From Acidimicrobiales bacterium (GTDB lineage Bacteria; Actinomycetota; Acidimicrobiia; Acidimicrobiales; Aldehydirespiratoraceae): a stretch of DNA of 64,000 nt. Below are positions 8,457-32,842 of the stretch, piece by piece; position 1 is the first letter of the stretch, and each line of letters opens with the position of its first letter. The DNA lies in NCBI GenBank assembly GCA_965207755.1, contig OZ242297.1, positions 83,384 to 147,383 on the forward strand, read 5' to 3'. The notes beneath the pieces were generated by a model. The model ran no database searches. It was given only the letters and a program-made list of their open reading frames with translations, and was not told the origin of the DNA. Both the position numbers and the translations under genes were made by a program.

Positions 8457-9059
8457 GGTTTGAGCGAGGACCTTGTGGGATGCATAATGGACGAGCCTCC
8501 AAGTACTGTTCTTCGAGGAAGCCGCGAGCCCCGGAGGGCCAGTCCGAGGATCCTGTAGGGTCGCCTAGGACGGGAGCCGGGGCTCACGCATGCATGGGCC
8601 CGGTCAGCCCACGTAGCGAACTTCCGTCACAGTGAGGTTCCTCTGCAAGAAGCTGAATCCCGCCGATTGGCCGTCGGTGAGGTGCTCCCGGACCACGCCG
8701 GCGAGGGCGTCGGGGTACCACAACAAGGGCTCGGCCTTCGTGCGCCAGTCGTAGCTGAAGGTTGCGGACGTCCGCTCGCGGAAGCAGTTGAGGATCACGG
8801 AGCGGCCGCGTCCGTCCTCACGCTGGCCGCGTGACTCGATGACGAGATGTCCGACACCCTCGCTGTGACCCCGCCCTCTCCCTGGCAGCGCCGAACGGAC
8901 CTGCGAAGCGTCGCGGTCGACCGGATCTCTGCGGGCCTTCAGCCCTTGATGAGCGTCTCGCGGTGGCGTCTCATCGCTGGTGCAAAAAGCGGCACGGGCG
9001 TAGGTTTCCTTCGACGAGTTGTCCGCTCAAGAAGGAGGCCTGCACCGGGGCCTGCATGA

Positions 9060-12311: not shown

Positions 12312-12356
12312 AACCGCCAAAACAGACCCGCCAGGCTCATCCCGGTCTCGATAATC

Positions 12357-12895: not shown

Positions 12896-12896
12896 A

Positions 12897-14243: not shown

Positions 14244-15436
14244 CAGCCGCCGTCACCAGACCGACGCCCGACTGCGGAGTGGGGTTCGCCACCCCCGAGG
14301 CCCGATGGGCTCGTCTGGGTCCCTACTACGCGATGTTTCCCATCAGTTTCGCCCAGGATGCCATAGACCGCTTCTCCCAGCCCGGAGACCTGGTCTTGGA
14401 CCCGTTCTGCGGCCGGGGCACCGCCCCATATGCCGCCATGGTCGCCGGCAGGGACGCCCTCGGCTGCGAGATCAACCCGGTCGCCTGGGTGTACGCCGCT
14501 ACCAAGACAGCCCCCGCGCCCGGCCCGGAGGCGGTCAAGGACCGCATCCGCGACATCGCCGAGTCCGCCTCGCCGGAGGACCGCGAGCCCAGATCGGAGT
14601 TCCAGGCCCTCGCGTTCTGCCGGACCGTGCTGGGGTTCCTGCACGCCGCGCGCCGCGGGCTGCGATGGCGGCACGACACCATCGACCGCACAGTCGCCGC
14701 GTTGATCCTCCACTACCTGCACAGCAAGATCCCCCAGGGGCTCTCGAACCAGATGCGCCACTGCCGGGCCATGTCGCCGGGCTACTGCGTGCGCTGGTGG
14801 AACGACAACGGCTACCAGACACCCCCCGAAGTCGACCCCGTCAGCTTCCTCAACGACCGAGTCGACTGGCGCTACCGCAGAGGAATCCCCGAGAGATCGC
14901 ACAGCAGCGGCGTGACCGTGACCCTCGGCGACTCTGCCGCCGACCTGGAGCCAGTGGCCAAGCCGGCCCGGCTGGTAGTGACATCGCCCCCGTACAGCGC
15001 GGTGACCGACTACAGAGCCGACAGTTGGCTGCGGCTGTGGGCGATCGGGGAAGGCCCCGCCTTGCCGAGATGGGACACCAAGCAGAAGTACGTCGACTTG
15101 GCCGCGTACGGCACGATGCTGCGGCGAGTGTTCTCGGCGACGGCACGCAGAGCACACCCCGACGCGGCGTGGCTGGTGCGCTGCGACGCCCGCGAGCGAA
15201 CATTCGACGTCGTCCTCCCCCTGCTGGGCGAGATCGCCGGCGGCCGAGACGTCGACGTGAGCCCTGCCCCGTTCCGGCGGCCCACCCAGACGTCGCTGTA
15301 CGGCGACCGGGCCGCGAAACCCGGCGAGATGGACCTGCTCGTGCGCCCCGGAGCCACGAGAGCACGCCGACCTGGCCAAAGCCGAGCCCCGAACGGCTCC
15401 GCCGCCGCCCGCTGCACACCACAGGCCGAATCGTGA
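14240..15436 (+). CDS. N6A/N4C DNA methyltransferase, motif I before motif IV (alpha-like order)
   Basis: The ATG at 14240 lies inside ORF 14069..15436. LVLDPFCGRGTAPYAA (AdoMet motif I) is followed about 200 aa later by LVVTSPPYSAVTDY (catalytic SPPY). Confidence 0.8.
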   Translation: MTAAVTRPTPDCGVGFATPEARWARLGPYYAMFPISFAQDAIDRFSQPGDLVLDPFCGRGTAPYAAMVAGRDALGCEINPVAWVYAATKTAPAPGPEAVKDRIRDIAESASPEDREPRSEFQALAFCRTVLGFLHAARRGLRWRHDTIDRTVAALILHYLHSKIPQGLSNQMRHCRAMSPGYCVRWWNDNGYQTPPEVDPVSFLNDRVDWRYRRGIPERSHSSGVTVTLGDSAADLEPVAKPARLVVTSPPYSAVTDYRADSWLRLWAIGEGPALPRWDTKQKYVDLAAYGTMLRRVFSATARRAHPDAAWLVRCDARERTFDVVLPLLGEIAGGRDVDVSPAPFRRPTQTSLYGDRAAKPGEMDLLVRPGATRARRPGQSRAPNGSAAARCTPQAES

Positions 15437-15630
15437 CCACCGGCCGCCGCCGAAGCCGCAAACTCGACGACGACTGGCCCAAGACCCCCCACCTCCTCGC
15501 CGCACGCTCCAAGCGATACCTTCGACGGCTCCACGTAGGCGACACCGCTTTCGCCGTCTGGGGAACCGTGGATAGAATGCGCCTCCCGTCTTGGATGACA
15601 TCGAACGGATACTCCGAGAAGTTGCCGGTG

Positions 15631-15807
15631 GCCCAGGCCTCGGTGCGGATCGGCCCCGCCGCCACATCAGGTGCTCGTCGCGCACAGGGTTGTCTTCCAA
15701 AGGGATCCTCCAGATGCCCGGCTGCCTGGCGGAGCCGATTCTGGGGGATCCCTCGCGTTCAGCCGCGGACGGTCAGCGCCCTACTCCGACCTCAAACGCG
15801 AAGCGCC
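15631..15807 (-). mobile_element. ISL3 subtype-2 left-end remnant (internal-deletion copy of 7808-8456)
   Basis: It shares gcccaggcc...ccgccacatcaggtgctcgtcg and the terminal 106 bp (15702-15807) with the copy at 7680-8456, in the same orientation. It retains only DEHLMWRRG of the transposase. Confidence 0.75.
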
Positions 15808-16024
15808 ACGAAAGTCCAGGTCAGAGTACATGTCCTGACTTTCGGCTCCAAAGGGTCTGACGCGATATTCTAATGGATATTCTGATATGCTGTCGGGAAC
15901 CGGTCGGGGAACGGATAGCGGGAAGTGCTACGCTCGTCATCACAATACAAGACATGACCCGGCCCCGGTGGCAGCCGAGGCGGGGCGACGTCACCAATTC
16001 CAGCAGGGCCTCGACCCCTGCTCC

Positions 16025-16063
16025 GGGACCCTCAACCACCCCCTCCCCACGTTTTCCTGCAGG
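16025..16063. repeat. solo ISL3 subtype-1 end (right-end orientation), copy R3
   Basis: gggaccctcaaccaccccctccccacgttttcctgcagg is the inverse of the end at 12357-12400. About 30 further bp inward also match the left end. Confidence 0.75.
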
Positions 16064-16249
16064 TTCGACCAATATAGTGTTTGCTGACGCTAAGCTAAGT
16101 CTCAAGGCTTGTCCTGCCAACACGTTGAGAGCACGATCCGAGTGGCCACCGAGAACACGCTTTGGCCCGTACCATCCAGTATCAACAGAATATGTGTCCG
16201 AGCGTGAAGTCACGAGTGACACAGCTCCTGTAAACAATCGGATGCTCAT
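16064..16249 (-). pseudogene. 5' stub of a fifth operon gene, cut off by the ISL3 end
   Basis: ATG 16249 overlaps the ImmA stop (ATGA). MSIRLFTGAVSLVTSRSDTYSVDTGWYGPKRVLGGHSDRALNVLAGQALRLSLASANTILV then reads into IS-end sequence (EPAGKRGEGVVEGP). Confidence 0.35.
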
Positions 16250-18681: not shown

Positions 18682-18722
18682 GGGACCCTCAACCACCCCA
18701 CTCCCCACGTTTCCGCGCAGGC
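18682..18722. repeat. solo ISL3 subtype-1 end, copy R4 (same orientation as R3 and R5)
   Basis: gggaccctcaaccaccccactccccacgtttccgcgcaggc. Confidence 0.75.
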
Positions 18723-18791
18723 TCATCATATATAAGCGGCGCGCCGCGCAGTTGATCGGGATGGTCCGGGAACCCGCTGCACGCAGGACGC

Positions 18792-19796
18792 TCAAGCGAG
18801 ACAGGCGGGGCAGGCAGCCGATCGTCTCGATCTCGGCGGACAACGGACGCGGGCCGATCGCGTGTCTTCGTCTGCTTGATGCAGACTCGCAACTCTCGTC
18901 TCCAATGTTTCTCTCTCGCATTCACGGGCAAGACCGCGAGCACCCAACACTTGACAACTCAGTGCTGCTACTGCTTGCGCGTAGCGGAGCGGCGCGGTCA
19001 GGTCTGATCTCTTGACCTCCTCCGGCACGAGCGACGGGAGTGCGTCCAACAACGCTGCGGTTGTCCAGTCTCCGGCGCCGCCTGCATCAATTGCATGGAC
19101 GGCGTAGGGGGGCACATGGTACCAGGCCCCACCGTTTTGCCGCCAGTACGCACCGTTGGCACCATCGGTATACACATTTGCTCCAGGCGATCCATCAAGC
19201 AGACCGCTCGTGGGGTCAAGTCGGTTAGCCGAGAACTTGACGATGTGGGCAAGCTCAAGCAGACGCCTGAACCTGGGGCTGCTGCCTGGCGTGGACGGCT
19301 CGAACACCACGAGCCCGCCGCCATCCCGAATGTGCTCAGCCATCAGAACCGCGGCCGCCGAAACCCTATCCACGAACAGTACGTCGGGCCGATTGATCGA
19401 ATCGACCAGCCTCTCCGCGAAGTCAATCGGGATGGCTCGAAACTGCGCGAATTTGCGTCCGCACTCCGGACAACCGAATCTGAAGCGGTGCGACCCGTCG
19501 CATACCTCGTGGATGACTACAGGGGTTGTGGAGTCCGGGCGCCGCAGTAGTCCTCTGGAGGAAACGCCTGCTCTCAACAGGTCGGCTCGCAGGTGATCGC
19601 CAGCTGGATCATCGCCGTGTAGAGCCGCAGTCGCTGCATCCCATCCGAGGTAGGACAGGTTGGCTGCGACGTTCCCCGCTGTTCCGCCAGCGCTGTGGCC
19701 TAGTCCGGTTCGATGAACGAGCACGTCCAAGACCACGTAGCCGACCGTGAGGACAGCCTTGCGATCTGGCTTCTGGGTCGGTTCTTGCCTCGTCAT
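18792..19796 (-). CDS. PfkB-family (ribokinase-like) kinase with a zinc-ribbon insertion
   Basis: GGTAGNVAANL (N-terminal GG motif) and AIDAGGAGDWTTAALL (PfkB signature 2) are present. The insertion reads HRFRFGCPECGRKF. The ATG at 19796 (MTRQEP) was chosen within ORF 18792..19829. Confidence 0.75.
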   Translation of the reverse strand: MTRQEPTQKPDRKAVLTVGYVVLDVLVHRTGLGHSAGGTAGNVAANLSYLGWDAATAALHGDDPAGDHLRADLLRAGVSSRGLLRRPDSTTPVVIHEVCDGSHRFRFGCPECGRKFAQFRAIPIDFAERLVDSINRPDVLFVDRVSAAAVLMAEHIRDGGGLVVFEPSTPGSSPRFRRLLELAHIVKFSANRLDPTSGLLDGSPGANVYTDGANGAYWRQNGGAWYHVPPYAVHAIDAGGAGDWTTAALLDALPSLVPEEVKRSDLTAPLRYAQAVAALSCQVLGARGLARECERETLETRVASLHQADEDTRSARVRCPPRSRRSAACPACLA

Positions 19797-19936
19797 TGGT
19801 ATGGAGCGCCAGCCAGCCACAAGCAGCAAAGCTGGTTCGCCTCGCTGAAGGTCTCAAGGCTAACCTCTGGCACGATCTCGTACTCGTCCGCCGCGGCTGC
19901 GGCAATCGGGATGGTCCGTTCGTAGGCCGCTAGCAC

Positions 19937-19962
19937 GGCGCCCTCCACCGGTGGAGGGCGCC
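19937..19962 (-). terminator. perfect 26-bp GC palindrome (candidate intrinsic terminator or operator) between the AlkB-like and PfkB genes
   Basis: ggcgccctccaccggtggagggcgcc is its own reverse complement. It lies about 160 nt downstream of the AlkB-like stop. No U-tract follows. Confidence 0.4.
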
Positions 19963-20120
19963 GGTGTTGGTCAGCGCCCTGCTCGGTATGCAGGCGTAGA
20001 GCAGGGGCTCGGATTCGGCAAATGACGTGCGCAACGCGACTCGACGTACGTGGCTGGCGGCTTCTGTGCCCGATGTCCTGCTGGAGCCTCCGTCTCTCTG
20101 CGGCGGTGCAGCAGATCCGG

Positions 20121-20753
20121 TCAGGTCTGCGCTCGCCGGGTGTGTGCGATGGTGCGGAACGTGATCGAGACGCGTCGTTGGCGCTTGGTCCGTTGGCCGT
20201 TCCAGGTGTCGGTTTGCCGTTTCGCGATGCCGTGGCGCCACTTGTGGCGGGCGTCGCCGTGGAGAAGCACGAGGCTGCGCGGCTCCAAGCGCTGCACATG
20301 CTTGTCCCCGGTCGACTCTCGACAGAAGTCCATGTTGACAGCCGAGCCCAGGCTGACGGTCGCGACGACGGGGCCGAAGCAGTCCCTGTCGATGTGGGGG
20401 GCGATCCCCTGCCCAGGCGAGTACTCGTTGATGATCGCCTGCTCGAACGGCCGGTCGGGGTCGAGTTGCTGCTTCGCTTCCTCGGATGCAACTTCACGCA
20501 CCGTGTGCGACAGTCGTGCCAGCCACTCTGGCAGCGGCCCGATGCGGGCCGTTTCGTCGAGGCTGCGACTGGTGTAGTCGTACTTGTACCCGAAGTGCAT
20601 CACACGCCGGGAGAGGTCCGTGAGCCACTCAGAGCCGTCGATCCGCGCGAGCAGCCCGCCCTCGTCGCGGGCAGACAAGGCGTCGGGGTGGTAATCGAGC
20701 CCCAAGGGAGCAGCCGCGGGCTGCGCGTCCGTCAGCGACAGTTGCAGGCTCAT
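20121..20753 (-). CDS. AlkB-like Fe(II)/2-oxoglutarate dioxygenase
   Basis: IINEYSPGQGIAPHIDRD (HxD), LLHGDARHKWRHGI (distal His) and RVSITFR (2OG Arg) are present. ATG 20753 overlaps the methyltransferase stop (ATGA). Confidence 0.8.
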   Translation of the reverse strand: MSLQLSLTDAQPAAAPLGLDYHPDALSARDEGGLLARIDGSEWLTDLSRRVMHFGYKYDYTSRSLDETARIGPLPEWLARLSHTVREVASEEAKQQLDPDRPFEQAIINEYSPGQGIAPHIDRDCFGPVVATVSLGSAVNMDFCRESTGDKHVQRLEPRSLVLLHGDARHKWRHGIAKRQTDTWNGQRTKRQRRVSITFRTIAHTRRAQT

Positions 20754-21667
20754 GTGCGCAGCATCCAGTGCTCTGCTCGTACGTCCCACAGTCGAGATTG
20801 CTCGTCCCACCATATCGGGCCGTCACCGCGGGCGGAGCCTGGAAAACGCCGCCGCACTCGAACATCGATGCGGTGCTGTTTCTTGAGGACGTCGGCCTCC
20901 TTGAGCATCCGCTCGAGGTCGACAAGCGCGCCTCCGCTGAGGTTCGCGGTGGTGTAGATGAGCTCGACGGCCCGGCCCGCCTCGCCGACGGCCCGCTCGA
21001 TGACGGACGCCCAGGAGGCTATGTGAGCTGGCCTGACGGTTCGTTGGTGGGCCACGTAGCTGAACGCGAACAGCAACCGGTCAACGTCGGTGAAGTCGAC
21101 ATCATCGAGCGAGTCGATGCAGGCGTCTGATCTGAAGCCGGCGCCAAGACACCCAAGGACCTCCCTGCCGAGCTCCCGCATCATTGGATTGGGGTCGAAA
21201 GCCCGGTAGTCGACCCGTCGGCGCTCGCTCCGTGTGAGAGCCTCGCCCAGCCCGACGGCCACCGTGGCCGCCCCGGCGCCGATGTCCACAACCAACAGGC
21301 GCTCGCCCTTCCCCGGTGGCGAGCAACACGCCTGCTTGTACACCTCGCGGAACACATCGGCATGACCCCGCTGATAGTAGAAGGAGTCATACAGCGCATG
21401 GGAGTCAGGCGCATCCGCCGCCAGTTGTCCCTGGCGCTTCGGGGACTCGGCGGCGTGCCGCTGCTCGTCTGGGGTCTCGCTCCATCGGCACACGATGGCC
21501 TCTGCGAATGCTCTGTCGTGGTCCACCGCCGCAGCGTACCTCTCGTGTGCTGTGTGGCTAGCTCGTGCGCCCGGCTCATCGCCGCCCGCCAACACGCCGC
21601 CCACGCCGCCCACGCCGCCAACGAGACCGCCCGGGTGGCCGCCGCCACCATCGGCGGGACGTGGCAT
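20750..21667 (-). CDS. class I SAM-dependent methyltransferase, substrate unknown
   Basis: Motif I is RLLVVDIGAGAATVAVGL and an acidic motif II is YRAFDPNP. The start is uncertain (ATG 21667 or GTG about 21595). The N-terminus is Gly-rich. Confidence 0.65.
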   Translation of the reverse strand: MPRPADGGGGHPGGLVGGVGGVGGVLAGGDEPGARASHTAHERYAAAVDHDRAFAEAIVCRWSETPDEQRHAAESPKRQGQLAADAPDSHALYDSFYYQRGHADVFREVYKQACCSPPGKGERLLVVDIGAGAATVAVGLGEALTRSERRRVDYRAFDPNPMMRELGREVLGCLGAGFRSDACIDSLDDVDFTDVDRLLFAFSYVAHQRTVRPAHIASWASVIERAVGEAGRAVELIYTTANLSGGALVDLERMLKEADVLKKQHRIDVRVRRRFPGSARGDGPIWWDEQSRLWDVRAEHWMLRT

Positions 21668-21935
21668 CGATCTGATGCCTGAAGGCTCGGTCCACGCGCG
21701 ACGCGTCGGTAGTGACCTCTACCGCGAGGACCTTCCCGTCATCGAGCCGAAGGTCGAAGTCGTGCATCCCCAGCGCTCCGCCTGTATCGCGCGGGCGGTG
21801 CTCGCCGCCCAACAGCTGCTTCAGCAACTCGGCTGCTCGGCGCTCCTCGGCGGGCATGTCGGCGAGAAGCTGAGCGTGGGCGACGATCTCAGCCATCTCG
21901 TCGTCGGTGAGCTTCATGGACGGCATGGATACCAC
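21576..21935 (-). CDS. small hypothetical protein; 3' end overlaps the methyltransferase 5' end out of frame (possible frameshifted fusion)
   Basis: MKLTDDEMAEIVAHAQLLADMPAEERRAAELLKQLLGG...GMHDFDLRLDDGKVLAVEVTTD is coding-like. The last 30 codons are Arg-rich shadow of the methyltransferase frame. Confidence 0.35.
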   Translation of the reverse strand: MVSMPSMKLTDDEMAEIVAHAQLLADMPAEERRAAELLKQLLGGEHRPRDTGGALGMHDFDLRLDDGKVLAVEVTTDASRVDRAFRHQIDATSRRWWRRPPGRSRWRRGRRGRRVGGRR

Positions 21936-22172
21936 CTGCCGGAGCCGTCAAGACGCGGTGCATTGAGCTTCGAGCGCCCCGGAAGCCTCAGTCCCATGCG
22001 CCACCCGGCGGGCACCGGATGTTGTCGGTCGGGTCGTCGCTGCAGTCAGCGACCAACTGTCCAAGGCCGGGCATATGAGCAGAGCCAGCGCCGGCGCCGG
22101 CGCCTCTTGGCGAGCCAATGGGCTACTTCCTGAGCGGAAGACAGTCAGCACCGAACCCCGCGCCGACGGCGA

Positions 22173-24608
22173 TCAGCGCGATCCACCCCCCTCCCCACGT
22201 CTCCGCGCAGGCTCACAAGGTTCGGTCGGTGTCAGGGCCAATTCGCAGAGGTCGATTCCAAGCTGCAGATGGTCTCGAGTGCGTTCATCCAATGAGCCGT
22301 CTCTGCGGACGATGCGGGCTCTTGCCGACCCGAGGACCTGTGCCACTCCTTCTTGGGGCAGTTTCTCTTGGGCGCCGGCGAGCAGCAGTTCGGGGAGCAG
22401 CAAGTCGAAGTCGAAGTCTTGGCCCTCCAGATGTTGCAAGGAGTCGCAGCAGTCGCGGCTGTCATGCCCCCACCAGGCCTCCTGCGGCTCGCACCATCGA
22501 AGAATGCATGCGTGGATCAATCCATCGAAGTAGGACCGCAGTACACGCCGAAGATCGAACTGAGCCCAGTAGGGCGCACCCCGTTGGCTCGCCCGGATGC
22601 GAGCTGATTGCATAGCGGATCCCACCGCGCAGAGGGTCTCGCGGCTGCCCAACTCCTGCCCGAAGTATGAGTGCGGCAGCAGTATCGGGCTGTCTCGACC
22701 CAGCAGGGTTTGCCCCGGCGCGGGGCCGTCTTGCAGTTCGTCGAGGCGCGCTTGCAGTTCAGGCGTGGCCAGGCCCTGCTTGTTGGCGGCGAGGTAGGTG
22801 TTGCGTTCCGCAACGAGCGGTGACCAACTCGGGAGGTGGCTCAGCCACAGGGCCAGCAGGCGCTTGTTGCCGTCGGCGTCGGTGAGGTTGTTCCTGATGC
22901 TTGCCCACAGGCGATCGTTGTCAGGGTGGGCGTGGAGTACCAGGCATTGGAAGTTGGCGTCGGGCCATCGTCGGCGTGCGGTAAGGAACATTCGCTGGCA
23001 GGTGAGGCCGGTGCGCGCTCCGAGCATGAGGATGAGCACATCCGGAGAATCGGCGCTAGGCGGCCTGTCGGGTGCGTCGCGGTCGGGGTCCGGTGTGTAG
23101 GCGATCCAATCGGCATCGTCAGACACAAAGCCGTGTTTGCCCAGCGTTTCAGCGAGAGCCTGCCATTCATCGTTGGTCAAGAGACGACGTTCTCTCGCGT
23201 CGTACATCACGACGGAGGCGCGCGACGCTACAAGGTCACGCGTGCGCTGGACAAAGTCCCGTATCGTGTCTTCCCGGTCGCGCTTCGGGTAGCGCTCGAA
23301 CTCAGCCAGACGGTCCTCGATCAGAGTTGCCGGGGATGCCTTGACGAGCAGCGTCGGCTCGAAGAAGATCAGTTCTTCTCGAGCACGCACTGACTCTGGG
23401 GGCGGTCGCGTCCCGGTGGGCCCGACGAGGTTGACGGCGCTATCGGGCGCGCTGTGATATGCCTCCCAGACGGAGGCGTTCCGTCGAGCGTCGAAGATAT
23501 CGGGCACGATCAGGTCGGGCTCGGGCAGGACCAAGGCTGACATGGCTCGTGGATTGATCGTCACGAGACGTGCTGTACGTGCGCTCCGGCACAAGCGGCA
23601 GGGCTGACCGTCGGGCTCAGCGCCTTCCGCCTCGCCCAGACCCAGCCAGGGAGCCTCGATGGTCCGCTGGGGCGGGGGATCCTCGACGATTCGCGGAGGT
23701 GGGGGCTCCACAGAGATGGCAGCCGCGCTGGACTGCTGTCTGGACACGAACTGCTCGATGCGCACCGTGGGTGCACCCAGCGCGGAGAGGGCGTTCAGCA
23801 GCCGCTGGGCGAACCCTCCGCTGTCGCTCACCGACATGAGCCCGAGCATCGGGCTGTCCGGTGAGATGCCGAGCAGGCTGGTGTGGAGTCCCAGGCTGCT
23901 CGACGGGTACCGGTCCAGTGAGAGCACCCCTGCGATCCCAGCCGACGAGTGCGAGACATGGCGATGGCGCTCCGCCGCCCGCTGGAGTTCACCGACCACA
24001 GGCATCAGCGTTCCGATGTCCATGACCGCCGTGGTCAGGGCTTCGGGGTTGAGGGCACCGTAGAGCCAGGTCGCGAGAGCGGGGGCGGCCCTGAGGTCTT
24101 GAAAGGCGTCGGCTAGCCGGATGAAGGTCGACGTGTGCTTTCCCGACGGGAGCACATAGTGGTATGCGTCCGGGTGCCAGAGCGCGTGTCCCCAGTCAAG
24201 GAATGCTTCCATTTCGATGGCGCGGGCCCGGGCAAGCAGCACCGGCTCGTGTCCGGTGCGGTCCTTGAGGCGGTGGCTCCACACGATCGTCGGGGGTGCG
24301 GCAACCTCGAAGACAATCACCCCCGCCGCCGCGACGGAGCCCATGGCCTTGAGTGTGGCCTGGAGAGCATCGGCCGCCTCCTCCGGCGGTGTCCACCCTT
24401 GGTCCTTGTGTCCCCAGCGCGCCAGCACCCAGTCCGGCCGGCCTATGAGGTCCAGCGGCACCGCTCGCAGGTAGCCGGCAACAGTCTCGACGGTGGTTGC
24501 CCAGTCGGCGACATCGAAAAACGTTAGGCCGCCGCCGGTGTCGTCGGCCCGTCGCGTCCGATCATGCTGGAACGGCAGGCGGGCGTACGCGTCCCGACGT
24601 TCCGCCAT
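22173..24608 (-). CDS. 811-aa protein with two degenerate phosphoribosyltransferase-like segments and a CxxC; C-terminus replaced by IS-end sequence
   Basis: ATG 24608 lies 17 nt after the GHKL stop. YHYVLPSGKHTSTFIRLADAF plus PMLGLMSVSDSGGFAQRLL resembles a PRTase hood and PRPP loop. A second loop-like segment is DVLILMLGARTGLTCQRM. A single CxxC is CRLCRS. The upstream 48 codons of ORF 22173..24752 look like shadow. Confidence 0.55.
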   Translation of the reverse strand: MAERRDAYARLPFQHDRTRRADDTGGGLTFFDVADWATTVETVAGYLRAVPLDLIGRPDWVLARWGHKDQGWTPPEEAADALQATLKAMGSVAAAGVIVFEVAAPPTIVWSHRLKDRTGHEPVLLARARAIEMEAFLDWGHALWHPDAYHYVLPSGKHTSTFIRLADAFQDLRAAPALATWLYGALNPEALTTAVMDIGTLMPVVGELQRAAERHRHVSHSSAGIAGVLSLDRYPSSSLGLHTSLLGISPDSPMLGLMSVSDSGGFAQRLLNALSALGAPTVRIEQFVSRQQSSAAAISVEPPPPRIVEDPPPQRTIEAPWLGLGEAEGAEPDGQPCRLCRSARTARLVTINPRAMSALVLPEPDLIVPDIFDARRNASVWEAYHSAPDSAVNLVGPTGTRPPPESVRAREELIFFEPTLLVKASPATLIEDRLAEFERYPKRDREDTIRDFVQRTRDLVASRASVVMYDARERRLLTNDEWQALAETLGKHGFVSDDADWIAYTPDPDRDAPDRPPSADSPDVLILMLGARTGLTCQRMFLTARRRWPDANFQCLVLHAHPDNDRLWASIRNNLTDADGNKRLLALWLSHLPSWSPLVAERNTYLAANKQGLATPELQARLDELQDGPAPGQTLLGRDSPILLPHSYFGQELGSRETLCAVGSAMQSARIRASQRGAPYWAQFDLRRVLRSYFDGLIHACILRWCEPQEAWWGHDSRDCCDSLQHLEGQDFDFDLLLPELLLAGAQEKLPQEGVAQVLGSARARIVRRDGSLDERTRDHLQLGIDLCELALTPTEPCEPARRRGEGGGSR
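22181..22212. repeat. solo ISL3 subtype-1 end, copy R5, forming the last codons of the 811-aa ORF
   Basis: atccacccccctccccacgtctccgcgcaggc. Translated on the minus strand it gives the ORF tail PARRRGEGGGSR. Confidence 0.65.
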
Positions 24609-24625
24609 CTCCGGTGCCGAAGGCC

Positions 24626-25624
24626 TCAGACCGGCGCCGGCTCGCGTCGAGTTCTCGGCCGCGGAACTGGCCCGTCGTGCGTGACGGCGTCGAGAGTCAG
24701 ATGGATCAAGGTCCCTTGCACGCCGTTGTACGCGAACTCCCGGTGGTCCCATTGCCCGGTCCGGCCTCGCCGTCCGTGATGCATAGCGCGCCCGGGCGCG
24801 AACGTCGAGATCAGGTTTATCGTGCCGTTCCAGCGAGCGGCGTGCTTCGCGACGGTGCTGAGGCCGTGGCCTGCCGTTGCGCCGATGACAGAACGGTTGC
24901 CGTAGACGGCCCCGACCAGGTCCGTGACCACATCGACGGCGATCTCGGAGTCGGGCTTGGCACTGTTGGAGAGGCAGGCGGTGTGCTCACCGCGGGCGGC
25001 AAGAGCCGCGGCCTTATCGCGCACCGAGCCCACGATCCCGACACCGTCGTCTGCGACGACGATCTGTAGACGGTTGTGGCTCCCGTGCCCGCCGCCGGCG
25101 GTGGCGCTTACGACGGCGAAGGATCGCCGGGCACGAGACCAGCGATGCACATTGTCGACCGCCTCGAAAAGGCATTGGTCGGTGTGGCGGTCGAAGCACT
25201 CCCGCTGCTCGTGGCCTGCTGCGGCTCCGAGGCCGTCGATCCAGTAGTACCGCCTGCCGTAAGGGTCCGGCACTGGCGGCTCGCGGCTCTCGAGCCGTGA
25301 CACGACTCGCATCCGGTCCGACGTCTCCAAGTCGAACTGGTCAAGGGCCAGTGTCTGGCCGACTGCCTCCACGCCCAACGCCGCGGAGACTGGAACGGGC
25401 TCGCCCTCGATCTCGAGCCCCACTCCGCGCCGGTCGGCCGCGAACACCAAGCCAGCGCGGGCCAGCCGACGTCTGACCACCAGCGATGAGGGGAGCACGA
25501 CCCTGGAAGGCGGGTCCGGGGTGCTCAGCACCCACAGCGCCAGCGCAAGATCTCCCGGCTGGATCGTGGCAGTCGAACTCAAGGCGCTGAGGATCAGTGG
25601 CTCCGATGAGTGCACCTCCGACAT
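24626..25624 (-). CDS. GHKL (histidine-kinase-like) ATPase with an unknown 150-aa N-terminal domain
   Basis: The N box is LFEAVDNVHRWS, G1 is IVVADDGVGIVG and G2 is ATAGHGLSTVAKH. A strong SD (GAGGAGGAG) precedes ATG 25624. Confidence 0.7.
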   Translation of the reverse strand: MSEVHSSEPLILSALSSTATIQPGDLALALWVLSTPDPPSRVVLPSSLVVRRRLARAGLVFAADRRGVGLEIEGEPVPVSAALGVEAVGQTLALDQFDLETSDRMRVVSRLESREPPVPDPYGRRYYWIDGLGAAAGHEQRECFDRHTDQCLFEAVDNVHRWSRARRSFAVVSATAGGGHGSHNRLQIVVADDGVGIVGSVRDKAAALAARGEHTACLSNSAKPDSEIAVDVVTDLVGAVYGNRSVIGATAGHGLSTVAKHAARWNGTINLISTFAPGRAMHHGRRGRTGQWDHREFAYNGVQGTLIHLTLDAVTHDGPVPRPRTRREPAPV

Positions 25625-26061
25625 GGTCTCCTCCTCGGGTATCTCCCTGGGTGATGCAGTTCAACTCTGCGCCGTGAGGTCTGACTGGCTAGATCCACAA
25701 CAATACCGAGCGCCTAGGACAGCAGCGGCTGAGTCTGGGGACGGCGCTGGGGAAATGAGCGCCCGCCTGTGGGAGGACGCTGGGGATTTGAGGCGGCTCT
25801 GTTGGACACTTGGGGAAACTCATGGAGATAACCGCAGTGGTTCGCCGTCCCGGGACTGTCAACGGCCTGTGGGATCTGCCCGCTGGCGGCCAGAGCACCC
25901 GTGGGCCAGCGCGGATCCGCACCCTCACCGGTGCCGAGTCGGCCCGCCTGGGGCGCTCTTCGACGCTCAGCCGCGCCTCGAATCTGCTTGGAAGGCCGTG
26001 TCGGCGCGCCGGGCGCGGCCTCGGCGGTGCTGTCAGCCTGCTTGAAGTCGCCGCACCACTC

Positions 26062-26300
26062 CTAGTCGGGCCGCTTCCCGGTGGAGCCCCGCTTGAGAAG
26101 GTCGGGCGCCGGCACGGCGGCCTTGTCGGGGCGGATCAGGCCGCGTCGGCGTCGGCGGAGGCGGGCGTTGAGCCCCAGCCGGGCCATGGAAGCCCTCCAC
26201 CGTCTTCGTCGAAACCTCGCCGGCGTCTCGGCGCAGATGGGCACGCGCCCACGGCGAGCCGTAGGTGCCGCAACGCCGACCACATCACGGCGAGACGCCG
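26062..26300 (-). pseudogene. IS3-family transposase (OrfB N-terminal region) fragment, frameshifted
   Basis: MARLGLNARLRRRRRGLIRPDKAAVPAPDLLKRGSTGKRPD matches the conserved ...GL..RRRR..T.PD....PDLL.R.F.A..P segment of IS3 OrfB. The preceding YGSPWARAHLRRDAGEVSTKTV lies in another frame. Confidence 0.5.
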
Positions 26301-26377
26301 CCTCTGGGCGCGCTCCTTCTCGGCGCCTGCTGCGCGTCCGCTTCTCACGCTCCGGCGCGATCCCCGGGCCATGCTCG

Positions 26378-26486
26378 GTCACGCTTCCGCCCGGCGCATC
26401 CAATGTCCACAGCCAGAGGAGCGACCCAGCCCGCGCCCCAATCAATCGTCGTCACGCTTCCGCCCGGCGCATCCGATGTCCACAGC
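26378..26486. repeat. DR36-N37-DR36 structure, period 73
   Basis: gtcacgcttccgcccggcgcatcc(a/g)atgtccacagc occurs at 26378-26413 and 26451-26486, with one mismatch. Confidence 0.85.
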
Positions 26487-27059
26487 GGCCGCCGCCGACT
26501 GCCCGAAGGCACCTGCCCCGAAGTTGCCACCGCCCATCTCGCGACCATCGAAGACTCCCCCTGACCCGAGTTGGCGGGTTGGCGGGGTTTGGCTGGGAGG
26601 TATGGCCTCTGACGTGGGGTTTTGTGTTCCGGGAGGGCTCGGGCCTGCGGCGGGGTGCGGCGGGTGATTCGGTCGACGCCGCGGGATCAGCGGCTCTGTT
26701 GTTGGGGGAGGAGAGGGGGGCGATGTGGGTGTGGCTCGCGGCGGTGCCGCGGGCGGCCCGATGGTGCGACGAGCTGGTTCGGCCGCTGGGCTGAGCGGGC
26801 CGCTGAGATGCCCGGGCGGTTCGCACTGGCGGCGGGGCGGTGGCTGTTGACCGTGGAGGTCCTGGCGGCGACGGTGCTCGCTGTAGAGCTTGCCGGGCAT
26901 CCTCGAGGACCTGGTCTTGCCGGTAGGCGCGCTGCGGGCCTGGACGACGCTGGTAGCAGCCGTGGCCACAGCCGTGCTGGCCCGCTGCTGAGGCCGCACC
27001 TGATGACGAACCGCACCGCGCTAGCGAGTGCCGCGGTCGTCGAGCAGCGCCCCCGCGAT

Positions 27060-27644
27060 TCAGGTCTGGCGGTTGTCCCTCGGGTCCCGGCACGCGTCGT
27101 AGGTGGCCTTGTCTATGTGGGTCCACGTCGTTCCCGGTACGCCCCTGGCTGAAGTGCTGCCGGGCCCCACGGGGAACGCCGACTCGAACAGCAGGTAGCG
27201 CTTCTGTGATTGGGCGATGTTCTTGGCGAGCCTCACGGCGGGTCCGAAGTCCGCGTCCTCGCTCACGATGATGGCGGCGTCGTAGCGCCTCTCGTGGGTT
27301 GCCTGTATGAGGTCGAGAGCGAGGCTCACGTCCACGCCCTTCTCTTGGCCGGCCGAGTTCACCCGCCCCGTGTAGACGTGGACGCCCTGGTTGCGGAGGC
27401 GGCGGCACTTGTTGGTCCAGAAGTTGTGCCAGAACTGATTGACAGCTGGGGCCGGGACGCCGGTGCAGAAGCGGACTTCGCTGAGCGTGCGTTGAGACAG
27501 GCGGCCCACCAGGCTGGCGGCGAGCCGCTCCACGTCGTAGCTGGGCCACGAGTACGGGGACGACCCGGCCGGCGGCACCGGAGCCCATGCGATCCTGGCC
27601 AGGTGGTAGAGGTTCTGGCCGTCGATGAGGACTATCGTGCGCAT
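27060..27644 (-). CDS. NYN-domain (LabA/DUF88-like) protein, putative RNase
   Basis: ATG 27644 was chosen. MRTIVLIDGQNLYH ... QEKGVDVSLALDLI ... YDAAIIVSEDADFGPAV are the NYN acidic motifs. Confidence 0.75.
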   Translation of the reverse strand: MRTIVLIDGQNLYHLARIAWAPVPPAGSSPYSWPSYDVERLAASLVGRLSQRTLSEVRFCTGVPAPAVNQFWHNFWTNKCRRLRNQGVHVYTGRVNSAGQEKGVDVSLALDLIQATHERRYDAAIIVSEDADFGPAVRLAKNIAQSQKRYLLFESAFPVGPGSTSARGVPGTTWTHIDKATYDACRDPRDNRQT

Positions 27645-27963
27645 GACATGAAACACCCGCCCGGGGACGGCATCGAAGCGAGCCGTCCAGCGGGCGGGGA
27701 GTAGATGACCCTGAGCGTATTGCGCCGACGCTGGCACGTCAACGCCTGCTCCGGGGACTTCGTTGGGCTAGTGGTGTGTCGTGGGTGCGGGCCCGTCCGA
27801 GAACAGGCCGGCTGCGCCCAGGGGATCGACGGCAAGCTCTAGCGGTGGTTGCAAGTGAGGGCAGTGTAGGCGCTGTGGGGTGAGTGCCAGTCGTGGAGTT
27901 TGCGGGGCATCATATTGAGGTTGTCCTCGATGACGGCGAGGGTGGCCGGGCCAACTACGTCTG

Positions 27964-29158
27964 GTGCATGAACTCATCGAACTCCTTCGACGTGACGGAG
28001 CATTTGACCCTACGAGCATGCACAGCGCCGCCGAGGTCGCACGCGAGCAGCTTGCCGAATCGCTCGAGCCGTACGGGACAGCGCTGCTCGAGGACGGCAG
28101 AATCGAACGAGACCTCGGGGTGTTCGTCAACGCCTCGACACTCCCGGACGAGGGGGTCCGGCCCGAACCGGATAGACGGTGTTCCTTGCGACAGCCTTTC
28201 CGATGAGCTACGTTATGAACATGTGTTCGGATCAGTCAAGGCCTACGAGGCGGCGTGCAAGAGGCAGGCCGTGAGACTTGGCGAGGTGTTCGTATTCGAC
28301 AACGGCCGGCTGACGACGCCCCAGTGGATCATCAACTTCCCGACCAAGGGTCATTGGCGCGCCAGGTCCCGCATCCGCGACGTGGCCGAGGGCCTCGACG
28401 ATCTGCGCGACGTGATCGAGGAGCTGGGGATCTCTTCCATCGCGCTGCCGCCGCTGGGCTGCGGCCACGGCGGGCTGGACTGGGACGAGGTCAGGTCACT
28501 GGTCATGGAGCGCCTGGACGGCCTCGATGTCGTCGTTCACCTGTACGCCCCGGAGGGCGCCCCCGACGCTGCCGAAATGGTGGTGTCGGCCCCGCGCCCG
28601 AGGCTGACTGCGAGCACGGCGGCGCTGGTGTCGGTGATCGACCGGTACTCCCAGGTGGCGCTGTTCGTGTCGCTGATCGAGATCCACAAGCTCATGTATT
28701 TCCTGCAGGAGGCGGGCGAGGACCTCAAGTTGCGCTATCAGGCGAAGTTCTACGGCCCCTACGCCGACAACCTCCGCCATGTGCTCAAGTCGCTCGAGGG
28801 CCATCAACTCGGAGGCTTCGGCGACGGTTCGAAGAAAGTACGCGAAGCCGAGCCGATCGCCGTGCTTCCAGGCGGAGTCGAGGAGGCATCCGACGCTCTC
28901 GCAGAGAATCACCAAATAATCGAGCGCATCGAGCGAGTCCTTGAGCTGGTCGAGGGCTACGAGTCGGCCTACGGACTCGAACTGCTCGCCAGCGTTCACT
29001 GGATGGCCGCCCGCAACGGGAACAGCGATGACTTGAGCGGTGTGACCAAGCGAGTCCAGAGCTGGAGCCGGCGCAAGCGGCGTATGTTCACCGCGCAACA
29101 CATCGAGTCTGCCTGGCAGCGCCTCCATGACCATGGCTGGCTAGCAGCTGCGGCCTAG
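27964..29158 (+). pseudogene. darG: DarG-like macrodomain antitoxin; N-terminal part of the macrodomain frameshifted or degenerate; no DarT gene
   Basis: KAYEAACKRQAVRLGEVFVFDNGRLTTPQWIINFPTKGHWRARSRIRDVAEGLDDLRDVIEELGISSIALPPLGCGHGGLDWDEV closely resembles DarG macrodomains, and a C-terminal domain of about 250 aa follows. The first beta-strands (YGTALLEDG...VFVNAS) sit in a different frame (27964..28206) and lack the usual NxxN/GxMGxG residues. Confidence 0.7.
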
Positions 29159-29204: not shown

Positions 29205-29429
29205 TCACGCGACGAACGGTCCGTTGGTGTGATGATCGAGTTGTTGGTGGATGTACCTGCCCTTGGAGGTTGCTGGATCTGAGAACTCTTCCCAGACGTG
29301 GGCGGGGCATCCCTCGTAGCGCCACTCCACACCGTCACGAGTGAACCTGGCAAGGATTGCCTCTTCGTCCTCCAAGTAGGCGATGGCTTGTGTTCGAGTT
29401 GATTCCGGCGTCGGTATCCAACCAATCAT
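29205..29429 (-). CDS. KTSC-domain small protein
   Basis: IAYLEDEEAILARFTRDGVEWRYEGCPAHVWEEFSDPATSKGRYIHQQL fits the KTSC pattern (x-F-x-x-G-x-x-Y-x-Y ... S-x-G-x-Y). Confidence 0.55.
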   Translation of the reverse strand: MIGWIPTPESTRTQAIAYLEDEEAILARFTRDGVEWRYEGCPAHVWEEFSDPATSKGRYIHQQLDHHTNGPFVA

Positions 29430-29435
29430 GGCTCA

Positions 29436-30043
29436 CCGCCCCATATGCCGCCATGGTCGCCGGCAGGGACGCCCTCGGCTGCGAGATCAACCCGGTCGCC
29501 TGGGTGTACGCCGCTACCAAGACAGCCCCAGCGCCTGACCCGGAGGCGGTCAAGGACCGCATCCGCGCAATCGCCGAGTCCGCCTCGCCGGAGGACCGCG
29601 AGCCCAGATCGGAGTTCCAGGCCCTGGCGTTCTGTCGGACCGTGCTGGGGTTCCTGCACGCCGCTCGCCGCGGGCTGCGATGGCGGCACGACACCATCGA
29701 CGGCACAGTCGCCGCGTTGATCCTCCACTACCTGCACAGCAAGATCCCCCAGGGGCTGTCGAACCAGATGCGCCACTGCCGGGCCATGTCGCCGGGCTAC
29801 TGCGTGCGCTGGTGGAACGACAACGGCTACCAGACACCCCCCGAAGTCGACCCCGTCACTTTTCTGAACACCAGAGTCGACTGGCGCTACGCAAGGGAAT
29901 CCCCGAGAGTTCCCACAGCAGCGGCGTGACCGTCGCCCTCGGCGACTCGGCCACCGACTTGGAGCCAGCGGCCAAGCCGGCCCGGCTGGTAGTGACATCG
30001 CCCCCGTACAGCGCGGTGACCGACTACAGAGCCGACAGTTGGC
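29436..30043 (+). pseudogene. internal fragment (about 610 bp) of a second copy of the 14240..15436 methyltransferase, frameshifted
   Basis: It is near-identical at nucleotide level to 14419-15034 (scattered substitutions by eye). It lacks motif I upstream, retains TSPPY, has a frameshift near 29890, and homology ends abruptly at gacagttggc. Confidence 0.85.
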
Positions 30044-31146: not shown

Positions 31147-32511
31147 ATGGCCCTACGCCTCGCCGCTGGAGTTCTCGTCGTGGCCGAGCCGAACTTCCTC
31201 AACCGGACCCTCTGGATCGGCGACAACCTGCCCGTGCTGCGCGGCATCAACTCGGAGTGCGTCGATCTCGTCTGCCTCGACCCGCCCTTCAACTCCACGC
31301 GCCTCTACAACGCTCCGCACGGTTCCGACGCCGCGGGGGCGCGGTTCGACGACACCTGGACGATGGACGGCATGGAGGCCGAGTGGACGGAACTGCACGG
31401 CGCCGCCGACCCTGCCCTGTACCACACAGTCATCGGCGCGAGGCTGTCGGCGGGAGACGCCATGCATGCGTACATGGTGTTCATGGCATTGCGCCTCGTC
31501 GAGGTCTGGCGGGTGCTGAGCCCCACTGGTGGTCTGTACCTGCACTGCGATCCCCACGCCTCGCACTATCTCAAGCAGCTATGCGACTGCGTCTTCGGCC
31601 CGGACCGGTTCCGCAACGAGATCGTGTGGAAGCGCACCAGCACCAAGTCGCTCGGAACCCGACGCTACGCCCGCGACGGCGACCGGATCCTCTACTACAC
31701 CAAGTCGTCTACCGACTTCGTCTGGAATCAGCAGTACCGGCCCCATGATCCCGACCATGTCCGCAAGAACTACCGGCATGACGACAACGATGGGCTGGGA
31801 CCGTACGCTACCGAGCAGTTGACTGGCGGCAAGGCGGGCGGCTCGCTGGCGTATGAGCCGTTCAAGGGGGTGGAACCGCCGAAGGGGCGTGCCTGGTCGC
31901 CGCCTCGCCGCGGAAAGTTCCCGCCCGTCAAAGCAGCGAGACTGCCCGACGACTACGAGCATCTTGACGTCCTCGCCAAGTGTGAGGCGCTCGACGACGC
32001 TGACCTGCTGTATTGGACCGCAGCGGGAATCCCCCGATACAAGAGCCATCTGTCTGCCAAGCGGGGCAACCCTGCGAGCGACATCATCACGCATATCCCT
32101 CCGGTGGCGGGCACGGAGCGCACCGGCTGGCCGACCCAGAAGCCGCTCGCCCTCTACGAGCACTTCATCGCGGCGTCGTCCGATCCGGGCGACATGGTTC
32201 TCGACCCGTTCTGCGGTTGTGCCACCACGATGATCGCCGCCGAGCGGCTGGGACGCCAGTGGGCCGGCATCGACATCGACGAGGTCGCCATCGGGATCAC
32301 CCGGAAGCGGCTGCAGGAAGAGTCCGACGCCGCCGTCCACAACGTCGACCTGGACGGCTCCCGGGAGGGCTCGCCGTCGCTGCACCTGCCGCCGCGCCCA
32401 CCGATCCGCACCGACACGGCCGGCTCGCGCGCGGCCTCCTCCCCGCCCAGACCGGTCGGAGCCAGCCGGCCGCTGACCAGCGTTCCGAGCTCAGATGATG
32501 GCCGAGGGTGA
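31147..32511 (+). CDS. beta-class N6A/N4C DNA methyltransferase (Type III Mod-like layout), no cognate nuclease nearby
   Basis: VDLVCLDPPFNS (motif IV) comes first. After a variable region of about 300 aa come TQKPLALYEHFI and MVLDPFCGCATTMIAAERLGRQWAGIDID (motif I). The ATG at 31147 lies inside ORF 30772..32511. Confidence 0.8.
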   Translation: MALRLAAGVLVVAEPNFLNRTLWIGDNLPVLRGINSECVDLVCLDPPFNSTRLYNAPHGSDAAGARFDDTWTMDGMEAEWTELHGAADPALYHTVIGARLSAGDAMHAYMVFMALRLVEVWRVLSPTGGLYLHCDPHASHYLKQLCDCVFGPDRFRNEIVWKRTSTKSLGTRRYARDGDRILYYTKSSTDFVWNQQYRPHDPDHVRKNYRHDDNDGLGPYATEQLTGGKAGGSLAYEPFKGVEPPKGRAWSPPRRGKFPPVKAARLPDDYEHLDVLAKCEALDDADLLYWTAAGIPRYKSHLSAKRGNPASDIITHIPPVAGTERTGWPTQKPLALYEHFIAASSDPGDMVLDPFCGCATTMIAAERLGRQWAGIDIDEVAIGITRKRLQEESDAAVHNVDLDGSREGSPSLHLPPRPPIRTDTAGSRAASSPPRPVGASRPLTSVPSSDDGRG

Positions 32512-32516
32512 GACGC

Positions 32517-32830
32517 TCGTGCGCCACGCAGCCCAGGCCTGGCGAGCCGGTTTCGGCACCCGCCCCCGGCGGCGCCACCGTCGGGCACTCAGCCCAAGTC
32601 TGGCGAGCCGGTTTCGGCACTGGTGCGCGACGCAGCCCAGGCCTGGCGAGCCGGTTCGGCACTGGCACTCAGCCCCAGGCCTGGCGGGCCGGTTCGGCAC
32701 TGGCACTCAGCCCCAGGCCTGGCGGGCCGGTTTCGGCACTGGTGCGCGACGCAGCCTAGGCCTGGCGGGCCGGTTCGGCACTGGTGCGCGACGCAGCCCA
32801 GGTCTGGCGGGCCGGTTCGGCACTGGTGCG
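32517..32830. repeat. seven tandem 38-42-bp units with core cagcc(c)caggcctggcg(a/g)gccggt(t)tcggcac
   Basis: Read directly from the sequence. Two unit subtypes alternate (tggcactcagcc... and tggtgcgcgacgcagcc...). Each unit contains the 10-bp palindrome ccaggcctgg. The array lies between convergent gene ends. Confidence 0.9.
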
Positions 32831-32842
32831 TCGCCGGGGGTG

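Follow-up and report, generated by a model that had tools for sequence, protein, structure and literature searches.

What are two closely spaced genes, one with the boxes of a GHKL ATPase and the other encoding a long protein that no family model claims, doing side by side in a genomic island strewn with insertion sequence (IS) remnants? The question is raised by a locus on contig OZ242297.1 of an Acidimicrobiales bacterium (assembly GCA_965207755.1, positions 83,384 to 147,383), a stretch of 64,000 nt that is called the window below and in whose coordinates all positions are given unless a contig is named. Gene 1 (“A”) encodes a GHKL protein and gene 2 (“B”) a multidomain pseudo-phosphoribosyltransferase protein (Table 1), and an earlier note, made from the letters of this DNA, had put them forward as a module of a candidate conflict system. 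We find that the pair is a horizontally mobile two-gene operon, with the genes in the same order and a few nucleotides apart, and that, as judged from profile comparisons, it is a divergent branch of the superfamily holding the candidate PDC-M65, undetected by the PADLOC models. The role that we favour, tentatively and at somewhat less than an even chance, is that of a conflict or defence cassette made of a pseudo-phosphoribosyltransferase sensor and a GHKL partner.

Both are real genes under purifying selection and not chance open reading frames (ORFs) of a GC-rich genome, because the G+C content at third codon positions (GC3) is far above that at second positions (GC2) in both (0.75–0.81 versus 0.52–0.53), because each has about 50 homologue clusters with 56–98% identity on the same contigs, and because the ratio of nonsynonymous to synonymous substitution rates against three homologous loci is 0.14–0.30 for gene 2 and 0.16–0.25 for gene 1. 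The layout described earlier, two co-directional genes 17 nt apart with a Shine-Dalgarno sequence before the first, is borne out by the coordinates and by GAGGAGGAG ahead of the gene 1 start codon. The mechanical ORF list starts gene 2 at an ATG further upstream and makes it 859 aa long; this reading was rejected, since the homologues all begin at MAE.RDAY, which corresponds to position 24608. A scan of positions 21800–27100 for sigma-70-type promoters gave no match, which carries no information in an actinobacterium. Gene 1 is separated from the neighbouring NYN-domain gene by 1.4 kb (25625–27059) with a G+C content of 0.73 and no ORF passing the codon-position filter.

An HMMER search with the gene 2 family against 1.84 billion representatives, each standing for a 50% identity cluster, returned 598 of them at E ≤ 1e-3 and 209 at E ≤ 1e-30, mostly 750–850 aa long. 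Pairing was assessed by scanning metagenome contigs with a DNA pattern built from the gene 2 hood motif alone, which yielded 37 loci, 33 of them assessable (the other four had too little upstream sequence). A GHKL ORF lies directly upstream of B in 32 of these 33, with a length of 320–440 aa where it is whole on the contig; the sole exception, locus L049, has a 919-aa B ORF (2201–4960 of its contig) and no recognisable A upstream. The gap between the genes is 3–20 nt and mostly 14–16 nt, with three loci at 111–139 nt and a few gaps hidden by ORF extension or by the contig end. Ten GTDB genomes, which belong without exception to Acidimicrobiia or related metagenome-assembled genomes and several of which are sponge-associated, show the same arrangement, and it is kept in every near-family contig examined. 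The identities of A and B co-vary (Mantel r of 0.96 for 28 distinct pairs, reached by 0 of 2000 permutations; r of 0.79 among distant pairs), and therefore the genes are inherited as one unit without partner swapping. With A upstream in nearly all assessable loci and with this co-divergence, the two families do co-occur across genomes, as treating them as one module had presupposed. The insertion site of the cassette differs in each genome examined. Searches of 50,697 phage records by tblastn with gene 2 and with a bridging relative gave no match, and neither did a comparison of gene 2 with plasmid sequences.

The nearest described relatives are found among the PDCs, 145 untested candidates that were selected because members turned up inside BREX, DISARM or type I restriction-modification (RM) systems (Payne et al., bioRxiv 10.1101/2024.01.29.577857). 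One of them, PDC-M65, comprises two families and is tabulated there with 40 instances (RefSeq), and the available portion of the preprint (bioRxiv 10.1101/2024.01.29.577857) assigns no domains to it. The sole PADLOC match of gene 2 is to the PDC-M65B model, over 20 residues (148–167) at E 8.7e-4; distant gene 2 relatives match this model in the hood region, within the first phosphoribosyltransferase (PRT)-like domain, with E-values down to 8.7e-11. The PDC-M65A model matched neither gene 1 nor any of 10 intermediate A proteins. A tblastn search with a distant gene 2 relative led to a plasmid of Polymorphobacter megasporae and to megaplasmids of Ralstonia solanacearum. In Polymorphobacter, two adjacent genes annotated as hypothetical score 1.5e-31 against PDC-M65A and 1.3e-87 against PDC-M65B (the latter over 1–714), and the A proteins of the Polymorphobacter and Ralstonia loci carry E-x3-N, D-x-G-x-G and G-L-G-L boxes, with A–B gaps of 3 nt and 14 nt, respectively, next to the 17 nt of the window pair. 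Downstream of the Polymorphobacter pair, two more hypothetical genes follow in the same direction (222 and 199 aa; 7912–9244 of locus L020); they have no PADLOC match and no counterpart beside the window pair.

Aligned by hhalign, the gene 2 family and PDC-M65B match with a probability of 96.5% (E 8.8e-10) over residues 86–705 versus 82–666, in a collinear alignment that includes the hood, the CxxC motif (CALC in PDC-M65B) and both loops described below. Profile likeness between the A families is limited to the G1–G2 region (E 0.019), and several metagenome A proteins are matched by both A profiles, so that intermediate pairs bridge the two. PDC-M65 and the window pair share the A-then-B order, the tight spacing and the GHKL boxes in A. 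The PDC-M65 A proteins, likewise about 330–400 aa, combine an N-terminal part without an assigned family with C-terminal GHKL boxes, and the B proteins, likewise about 735–810 aa, have a YH.xPSG.H hood, the CxxC and the same domain order. The two differ in that B identity to gene 2 is only 18–19% and in their hosts, which are Acidimicrobiia for pairs of the window type and Proteobacteria for PDC-M65. Among the near-family loci, one directly adjoins an SNF2/DUF1156/DUF499 cluster and another an HsdM_N fragment and UvrD, so that adjacency is seen in both cases and embedding may or may not apply. Because the PADLOC A model misses gene 1 and the ten intermediates, current tools see a narrow proteobacterial clade only. 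The earlier statement that no named system has this pairing thus holds in part: a search of the literature on PDC-M65 and on pairings of GHKL proteins with phosphoribosyltransferases (PRTases) found no characterised system and no description of the family, but gene 2 is a distant homologue of PDC-M65B within the same GHKL-then-B layout.

The AlphaFold2 model of gene 1 (mean predicted local distance difference test score, pLDDT, of 71) has an N-terminal domain, a disordered linker (aa 88–117) and a C-terminal alpha/beta sandwich. The order of its elements alone makes the N-terminal domain resemble a winged helix, which may serve as a lead; G58, A62 and R66 in this domain are conserved among 36 distinct partner proteins, the set behind all gene 1 conservation values given here. 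The C-terminal part carries the N box (E154/N158), the G1 box (D192-G194-G196), the G2 box (G248/G252-H-G254-L255) and a terminal G304-T305. Conservation is 97–100% for N158, D192, G194, G196, G252 and G254, 88% for L255, 77% for E154 and within 88–100% for G304-T305. Foldseek returned 95 matches in the Protein Data Bank (PDB) at E ≤ 1e-3 with a probability of about 1.0, and among the 50 listed all are GHKL ATPases (TopoVI-B, TRAP1/Hsp90, GyrB and MutL). The boxes read from the sequence in the earlier note (EAVDNVHRW, VVADDGVGI and GHGLSTV) are therefore present and conserved, and the fold comparison confirms the assignment. Against Pfam HATPase_c (PF02518), gene 1 itself scores 21.7 bits (E 2.9e-4), under the gathering cut-off of 26.4, which four of 10 diverse relatives pass with 27.6–29.5 bits; the matches in the relatives span profile positions 5–109 of 111. 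The best score against HATPase_c_2, the anti-sigma serine-kinase type, is 26.8 bits in one partner, versus a cut-off of 27.4. No Pfam match to a HisKA/DHp domain was obtained for gene 1 or the 10 relatives, and a PDB sequence-profile search with the whole gene 1 alignment returned noise only. As far as its motifs tell, gene 1 is a protein that keeps every residue for ATP-Mg binding in a Bergerat fold of the histidine-kinase type.

These properties also bear on a reading in terms of cellular signalling, in which gene 1 would be a serine kinase like RsbW/SpoIIAB, with gene 2 either as its substrate or as the protein that sequesters it, so that nucleotide or phosphoribosyl pyrophosphate (PRPP) status is turned into a stress or growth response by partner switching. 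Gene 1 shares the N, G1 and G2 boxes and the terminal G-T strand with histidine and anti-sigma kinases; many relatives have E-x3-N-x3-H-A and a terminal G-T...L-P, the HATPase_c_2 score comes near its threshold, and a HisKA domain is absent, as such a kinase would have it. The Ser-rich loop of gene 2 at a helix N-terminus, the absence of a toxic effector domain among those found, and the position of some loci among housekeeping genes fit this reading as well. We nevertheless consider it unlikely, given the patchy distribution with a different insertion site in each genome, the atypical composition of the island, the decaying copies and the relationship to a cassette seen inside restriction, BREX or DISARM systems. 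The pair is not flanked in a conserved manner by a sigma factor, a PP2C phosphatase or a STAS partner, and neither STAS nor PP2C genes are conserved in the neighbourhoods examined. Unlike the histidine and anti-sigma kinases, gene 1 comes without HisKA/DHp, STAS partner or phosphatase and with a family-specific N-terminal domain of about 140 aa.

For gene 2, the model of the whole protein served as the Foldseek query; its mean pLDDT is 80, falling below 50 around the CxxC. The best PDB matches are orotate phosphoribosyltransferases (OPRTases; 9e5g/4ohc, E 6e-4, probability 1.0), and the top fold matches are all type I PRTases or PRT-fold regulators (OPRTase, HGPRT, APRT, PurR and PyrR); viral structures gave no match at E ≤ 1e-3. 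In the first PRT-like domain, YHYVLPSGKHTSTF precedes the PRT core as the OPRTase hood does, and resembles the OPRTase signature F-x-L-x-S-G-x-x-S (a lead only), and LGLMSVSDSGGF occupies the position of the PRPP-binding strand-loop-helix. In this loop, S259 (97% conserved) stands at the second acidic position and a hydrophobic M/L258 at the first, and the Ser-rich segment S259–S263 lies at the N-terminus of a helix. The loop of the second domain, VLILMLGARTGLT, keeps the T-G of a phosphate loop and has the acidic pair replaced by hydrophobic residues. The acidic PRPP pair is absent from both loops family-wide, just as the note had read it from this one copy, and the hood, the two loops and the CxxC between the segments are likewise all present and conserved. 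As modelled, gene 2 is thus built on an OPRTase-like PRT fold in which the hood and the phosphate loop are kept and the acidic pair that holds ribose and Mg is gone.

Conservation in gene 2 was assessed over 57 diverse sequences with identities down to 18%. Seven positions are invariant (D32, H150, H158, G264, E601, R621 and R704) and eleven more are conserved in at least 90% (E132, D197, S259, C337, C340, G530, G534, H559, E710, E740 and K749); the CxxC is 98% conserved in 144 sequences. H150, H158, C337 and C340 could form a putative zinc site, as an alternative to an acceptor or ligand role. No Pfam family, PF00156 (Pribosyltran) included, and no NCBIfam family matched gene 2; across the 57 members Pfam gave scattered single weak matches, with PF00156 in one of them, and neither protein of the pair is claimed by a housekeeping family in these searches, as the idea of the earlier note required. 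That one match (E 0.017) belongs to a Ralstonia homologue and covers the stretch equivalent to the second alpha/beta domain. In a comparison of the first domain with the second, hhalign pairs the two loops at P 0.024, and a PDB profile search with the second domain returned noise only; the PRT identity of the second domain is weakly supported because it draws on this P-value and the single Pfam match, with the PDB profile search null. Of the tandem PRTase-like segments claimed at the outset, the first accordingly stands on its fold matches and the second weakly. PDB profile searches with the whole gene 2 alignment and with the C-terminal helical domain gave noise only as well, the noise in the searches with A, B and the B domains including a histidine kinase at E 0.55, GroEL at E 0.02, mL37 and a sugar-binding protein. 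Two further assignments were tried and set aside: RSYFDGLIH as an R-x(4-6)-H RNase site of the HEPN type, which is at odds with its R-x7-H spacing and with a His that the wider family does not conserve, and the N-terminal domain as a receiver (REC) domain, whose pattern the conserved residues do not fit on inspection by eye.

In the regulators PurR and PyrR, the PRT fold serves to bind PRPP, nucleotides or (p)ppGpp and catalyses no reaction. By analogy, nucleotide sensing may be what gene 2 does, in line with the earlier suggestion. It shares with type I PRTases, PurR and PyrR the fold (probability 1.0) and a phosphate loop ending in S/T-G. It differs from the PRTases in lacking the acidic pair and a PF00156 match of its own and in carrying the fold inside 811 aa with three extra domains, and from PurR in having no DNA- or RNA-binding domain. 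PRT-fold proteins in defence-type clusters, as gene 2 may be one, are also known from type III retrons, ShosTA, PsyrTA and Ophion (OpnC), whose PRTases are described as active and mutually related; Retron-Eco11 is reportedly a type III retron with a PRTase effector. Their partners are a reverse transcriptase with a non-coding RNA, an antitoxin, or radical-SAM and PHP proteins, whereas here the partner is a GHKL protein, and the PADLOC models of these PRTase-effector systems (retron III, ShosTA, PsyrTA and Ophion) did not match gene 2.

Such systems raise the alternative that the pair is an active nucleotide-metabolising complex, in which gene 2 would carry out phosphoribosyl transfer or a nucleosidase-type reaction at a non-canonical site (H150, H158, D197 and S259), like ShosT, PsyrT and retron type III, with gene 1 as its regulator. 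The invariant polar residues in and around the PRT pocket, the purifying selection over the whole of gene 2 and the established place of PRTase effectors in defence speak for catalysis. With both PRPP loops devoid of the acidic pair by which catalytic type I PRTases are defined, PF00156 matched by 1 of 57 members at E 0.017, and the pocket region modelled at low confidence, we regard an active enzyme as quite improbable.

The genomic surroundings of the pair in other genomes are variable and rich in defence and mobile genes, as had been expected for a conflict system, in a qualitative assessment of nine near-family contexts. Depending on the genome, the neighbours are a PIN toxin-antitoxin (TA) pair; a large methyltransferase with a ribbon-helix-helix antitoxin-like (Pfam Antitox_RHH) gene; an SNF2/DUF1156/DUF499-HEPN cluster; HNH and ImmA-type (Peptidase_M78) genes; an AAA_15 ATPase; an HD-domain protein with a bAvd gene; dCTP deaminase, HMUDK and IS3; or an HsdM fragment (HsdM_N) with a UvrD helicase. 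The same surroundings would suit a TA-like addiction or stabilisation module of mobile elements, with one protein inhibiting growth, the other neutralising it, and no phage-specific role. The pair is a tightly coupled two-gene operon of conserved spacing, it adjoins TA genes (PIN, Fic/Doc and DarG) and IS elements, and the Proteobacteria copies sit on a plasmid and megaplasmids. Its proteins, at 332 and 811 aa, are far above typical TA sizes, both have ligand- or ATP-binding folds typical of sensors, and no likeness to a TA family appeared in Pfam, NCBIfam or PADLOC. We think an addiction module a poor prospect on this balance, and the distinction is itself blurred, as many defence systems look alike and the two readings overlap.

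Returning to the conflict or defence cassette, we propose that the pair would act as one machine in genetic conflict, most likely in phage defence. On the model of PurR and PyrR, gene 2 would serve as a sensor or scaffold devoid of catalysis and would bind a phosphorylated small molecule, with a nucleotide, PRPP or an alarmone as candidate ligands. Its engagement with gene 1 would change when the ligand binds or is lost. For gene 1, two uses of ATP are conceivable: it could be a dimerising switch, or it could be a serine or histidine protein kinase like RsbW/SpoIIAB with gene 2, a cellular protein or a phage protein as substrate. Candidates for acceptor or ligand sites are the flexible H150/H158 loop and the Ser-rich S259–S263 loop of gene 2. 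Growth would be arrested or phage replication blocked as a result, and the best candidate for the effector step is the cluster E601/R621/R704/E710/E740/K749, which belongs to the helical domain at the C-terminus of gene 2.

Several points weigh against this proposal. No recognisable effector (nuclease, NADase or pore) is present in either protein, and ligand binding, kinase activity and A–B contact are predictions only. Foldseek places GHL ATPases above kinases for gene 1, and because it does so, the kinase variant leans on the motifs and on the near-threshold HATPase_c_2 score in relatives; the second PRT-like domain of gene 2 is, as said, weakly supported. The defence association is qualitative and comes from the nine near-family contexts mentioned, some contexts hold mostly housekeeping or metabolic genes, and the whole superfamily, PDC-M65 included, still has candidate status for defence. 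The cassette is, moreover, dispensable, since it is found in decayed form with a frameshifted A (L014, 4781–5847), a fragmented B (L015, 6001–8003) or a C-terminal B remnant (L016, 5998–6507), and without A in L049 (coordinates of the respective contigs).

A fuller version of the proposal would make the superfamily, with about 600 clusters that are mostly invisible to PADLOC, an immune or conflict system with a new mechanism: a dead, OPRTase-derived double PRT scaffold would read the nucleotide or PRPP state and control, or be phosphorylated by, a stand-alone ATPase of the histidine-kinase type, with output through a new helical domain bearing the invariant E/R/R/E/E/K. Taken with all of its parts, this version is in our estimate on the unlikely side. 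ATPase modules of this type do occur in anti-phage clusters: Ambrosia contains one of the histidine-kinase type, and Detocs reportedly one of the HATPase_c type. Ambrosia and Detocs have full two-component logic with a receiver domain and an effector (HNH or PNP), whereas the window pair has neither a receiver nor an identified effector.

If the pair is a defence system, it would extend PDC-M65, a little-noticed PADLOC candidate, into a superfamily of hundreds of clusters in Actinomycetota and Proteobacteria that the PADLOC, Pfam and NCBIfam models tried here mostly miss. The analysis provides a first domain-level description of a candidate of the PDC-M65 type, with a GHKL partner, a probable OPRTase-derived pseudo-enzyme and a list of invariant residues. 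Pseudo-PRTases such as PurR and PyrR are known as sensors of nucleotides or alarmones in transcription control; a pseudo-PRTase at the core of a mobile conflict cassette would, if true, link the sensing of nucleotide pools to immunity in a new way. Should the pair instead belong to housekeeping signalling, it would be a caution for predictions of guilt by embedding.

Table 1. Features of the two-gene locus and its immediate surroundings (window coordinates)
Feature	Position	Strand	Remarks
Gene 1 (A)	24626-25624	-	332-aa ORF; family-specific N-terminal domain and C-terminal GHKL/HATPase_c domain
Gene 1, N-terminal domain	25364-25624	-	aa 1-87; compact alpha/beta, order a1-b1-a2-a3-b2-b3; AlphaFold2 pLDDT 77-92
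Gene 1, Bergerat-fold domain	24686-25204	-	aa ~141-313; from Foldseek, motif conservation and Pfam in relatives
Shine-Dalgarno-like GAGGAGGAG	25628-25636	-	3 nt before the gene 1 ATG; read from sequence
Intergenic spacer	24609-24625	-	17 nt; spacing conserved family-wide, mostly 14-16 nt
Gene 2 (B)	22173-24608	-	811 aa; multidomain pseudo-phosphoribosyltransferase protein; native part 22213-24608
Gene 2, N-terminal alpha/beta domain	24258-24608	-	aa 1-117; invariant D32, near-invariant R64
Gene 2, PRT-like domain 1 (OPRTase-like)	23724-24257	-	aa ~118-295; from Foldseek
Hood motif YHYVLPSGKHTSTF	24123-24164	-	aa 149-162, in PRT-like domain 1
Degenerate PRPP loop LGLMSVSDSGGF	23811-23846	-	aa 255-266, in PRT-like domain 1
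CxxC (CRLC; C337, C340)	23589-23600	-	in a linker modelled at low confidence that separates the PRT-like parts
Gene 2, second Rossmann-like alpha/beta domain	22824-23231	-	aa ~460-595; alternating strand-helix in AlphaFold2 model
PRPP-loop-like segment VLILMLGARTGLTCQR	22995-23042	-	aa 523-538, in second alpha/beta domain; invariant-like H559 nearby in domain
Gene 2, C-terminal helical domain	22224-22820	-	aa ~597-795; invariant E601, R621, R704; near-invariant E710, E740, K749; no recognisable family
IS terminal inverted repeat copy	22183-22212	+	abuts gene 2; from blastn within the window and five-copy alignment; terminus ...CCGCGCAGGC
AlkB-like 2-oxoglutarate-Fe(II) oxygenase	20121-20813	-	
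305-aa protein	20750-21667	-	no family match
119-aa protein	21576-21935	-	

The 3′ end of gene 2 lies within an IS terminal inverted repeat, a copy of which ends at position 22212, inside codon 799. The final 12 codons and the stop codon come from this repeat, and homology to the nearest homologous locus breaks off at the same point. The last 12 codons are thus IS-derived, as had been noticed before. The suspicion of a C-terminal truncation that went with this was overstated: the homologues end 1–4 residues past LALTP and the window copy keeps five native residues past it, so that gene 2 is effectively complete. Further copies of the repeat lie at 5076–5114, 12355–12433, 15991–16068 and 18684–18722, which makes two left-type and three right-type ends in all, and within the pair spanning 12355–16068 lie a methyltransferase fragment and an ISL3 zinc-ribbon ORF. 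The remaining ends are unpaired and suggest nested or one-ended insertions. Between two right-type ends (18723–22212), downstream of gene 2, stand the three co-directional minus-strand genes that close Table 1; being absent from other pair-bearing loci, they are not part of the module.

The pair lies in an island of about 32 kb with a GC3 lower than that of the core genome, which begins near 32.8 kb. At about 32500–32850 the GC3 of the ORFs jumps from 0.75–0.85 to 0.9–0.97 and the next gene encodes a gamma-glutamyltranspeptidase, which looks like the right-hand boundary of an acquired island. The island holds Fic/Doc, an AlkB-like oxygenase, an NYN-domain gene, DarG (PADLOC E 6.6e-101), two DNA methyltransferases and transposase fragments. 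Most of the neighbours named in the earlier note are accordingly there (Fic/Doc, DarG, the methyltransferases and the transposase fragments), but AbiE was not seen among the ORFs scanned. The DarG match covers only aa 118–417 of its ORF (27884–29158, plus strand). No DarT-like gene was seen upstream, where a divergent NYN gene (27060–27737, minus strand) has a weak HEC-09 match; the ORF may represent an orphan or rearranged DarTG locus.

Elsewhere in the window, a 611-bp duplicate with 95% identity (14419–15029 and 29434–30043) overlaps the methyltransferase fragment of the IS-bounded region and the ORF at 29357–29929. Self-comparison revealed tandem arrays with offsets of about 65–80 bp at 60857–61758, 55895–56300, 52027–52353, 54722–55077, 43981–44094 and 7608–7722, the largest of which (60857–61758, about 0.9 kb) coincides with an extreme GC skew of +0.28 and an AT skew of −0.34 in the 61–62 kb bin.

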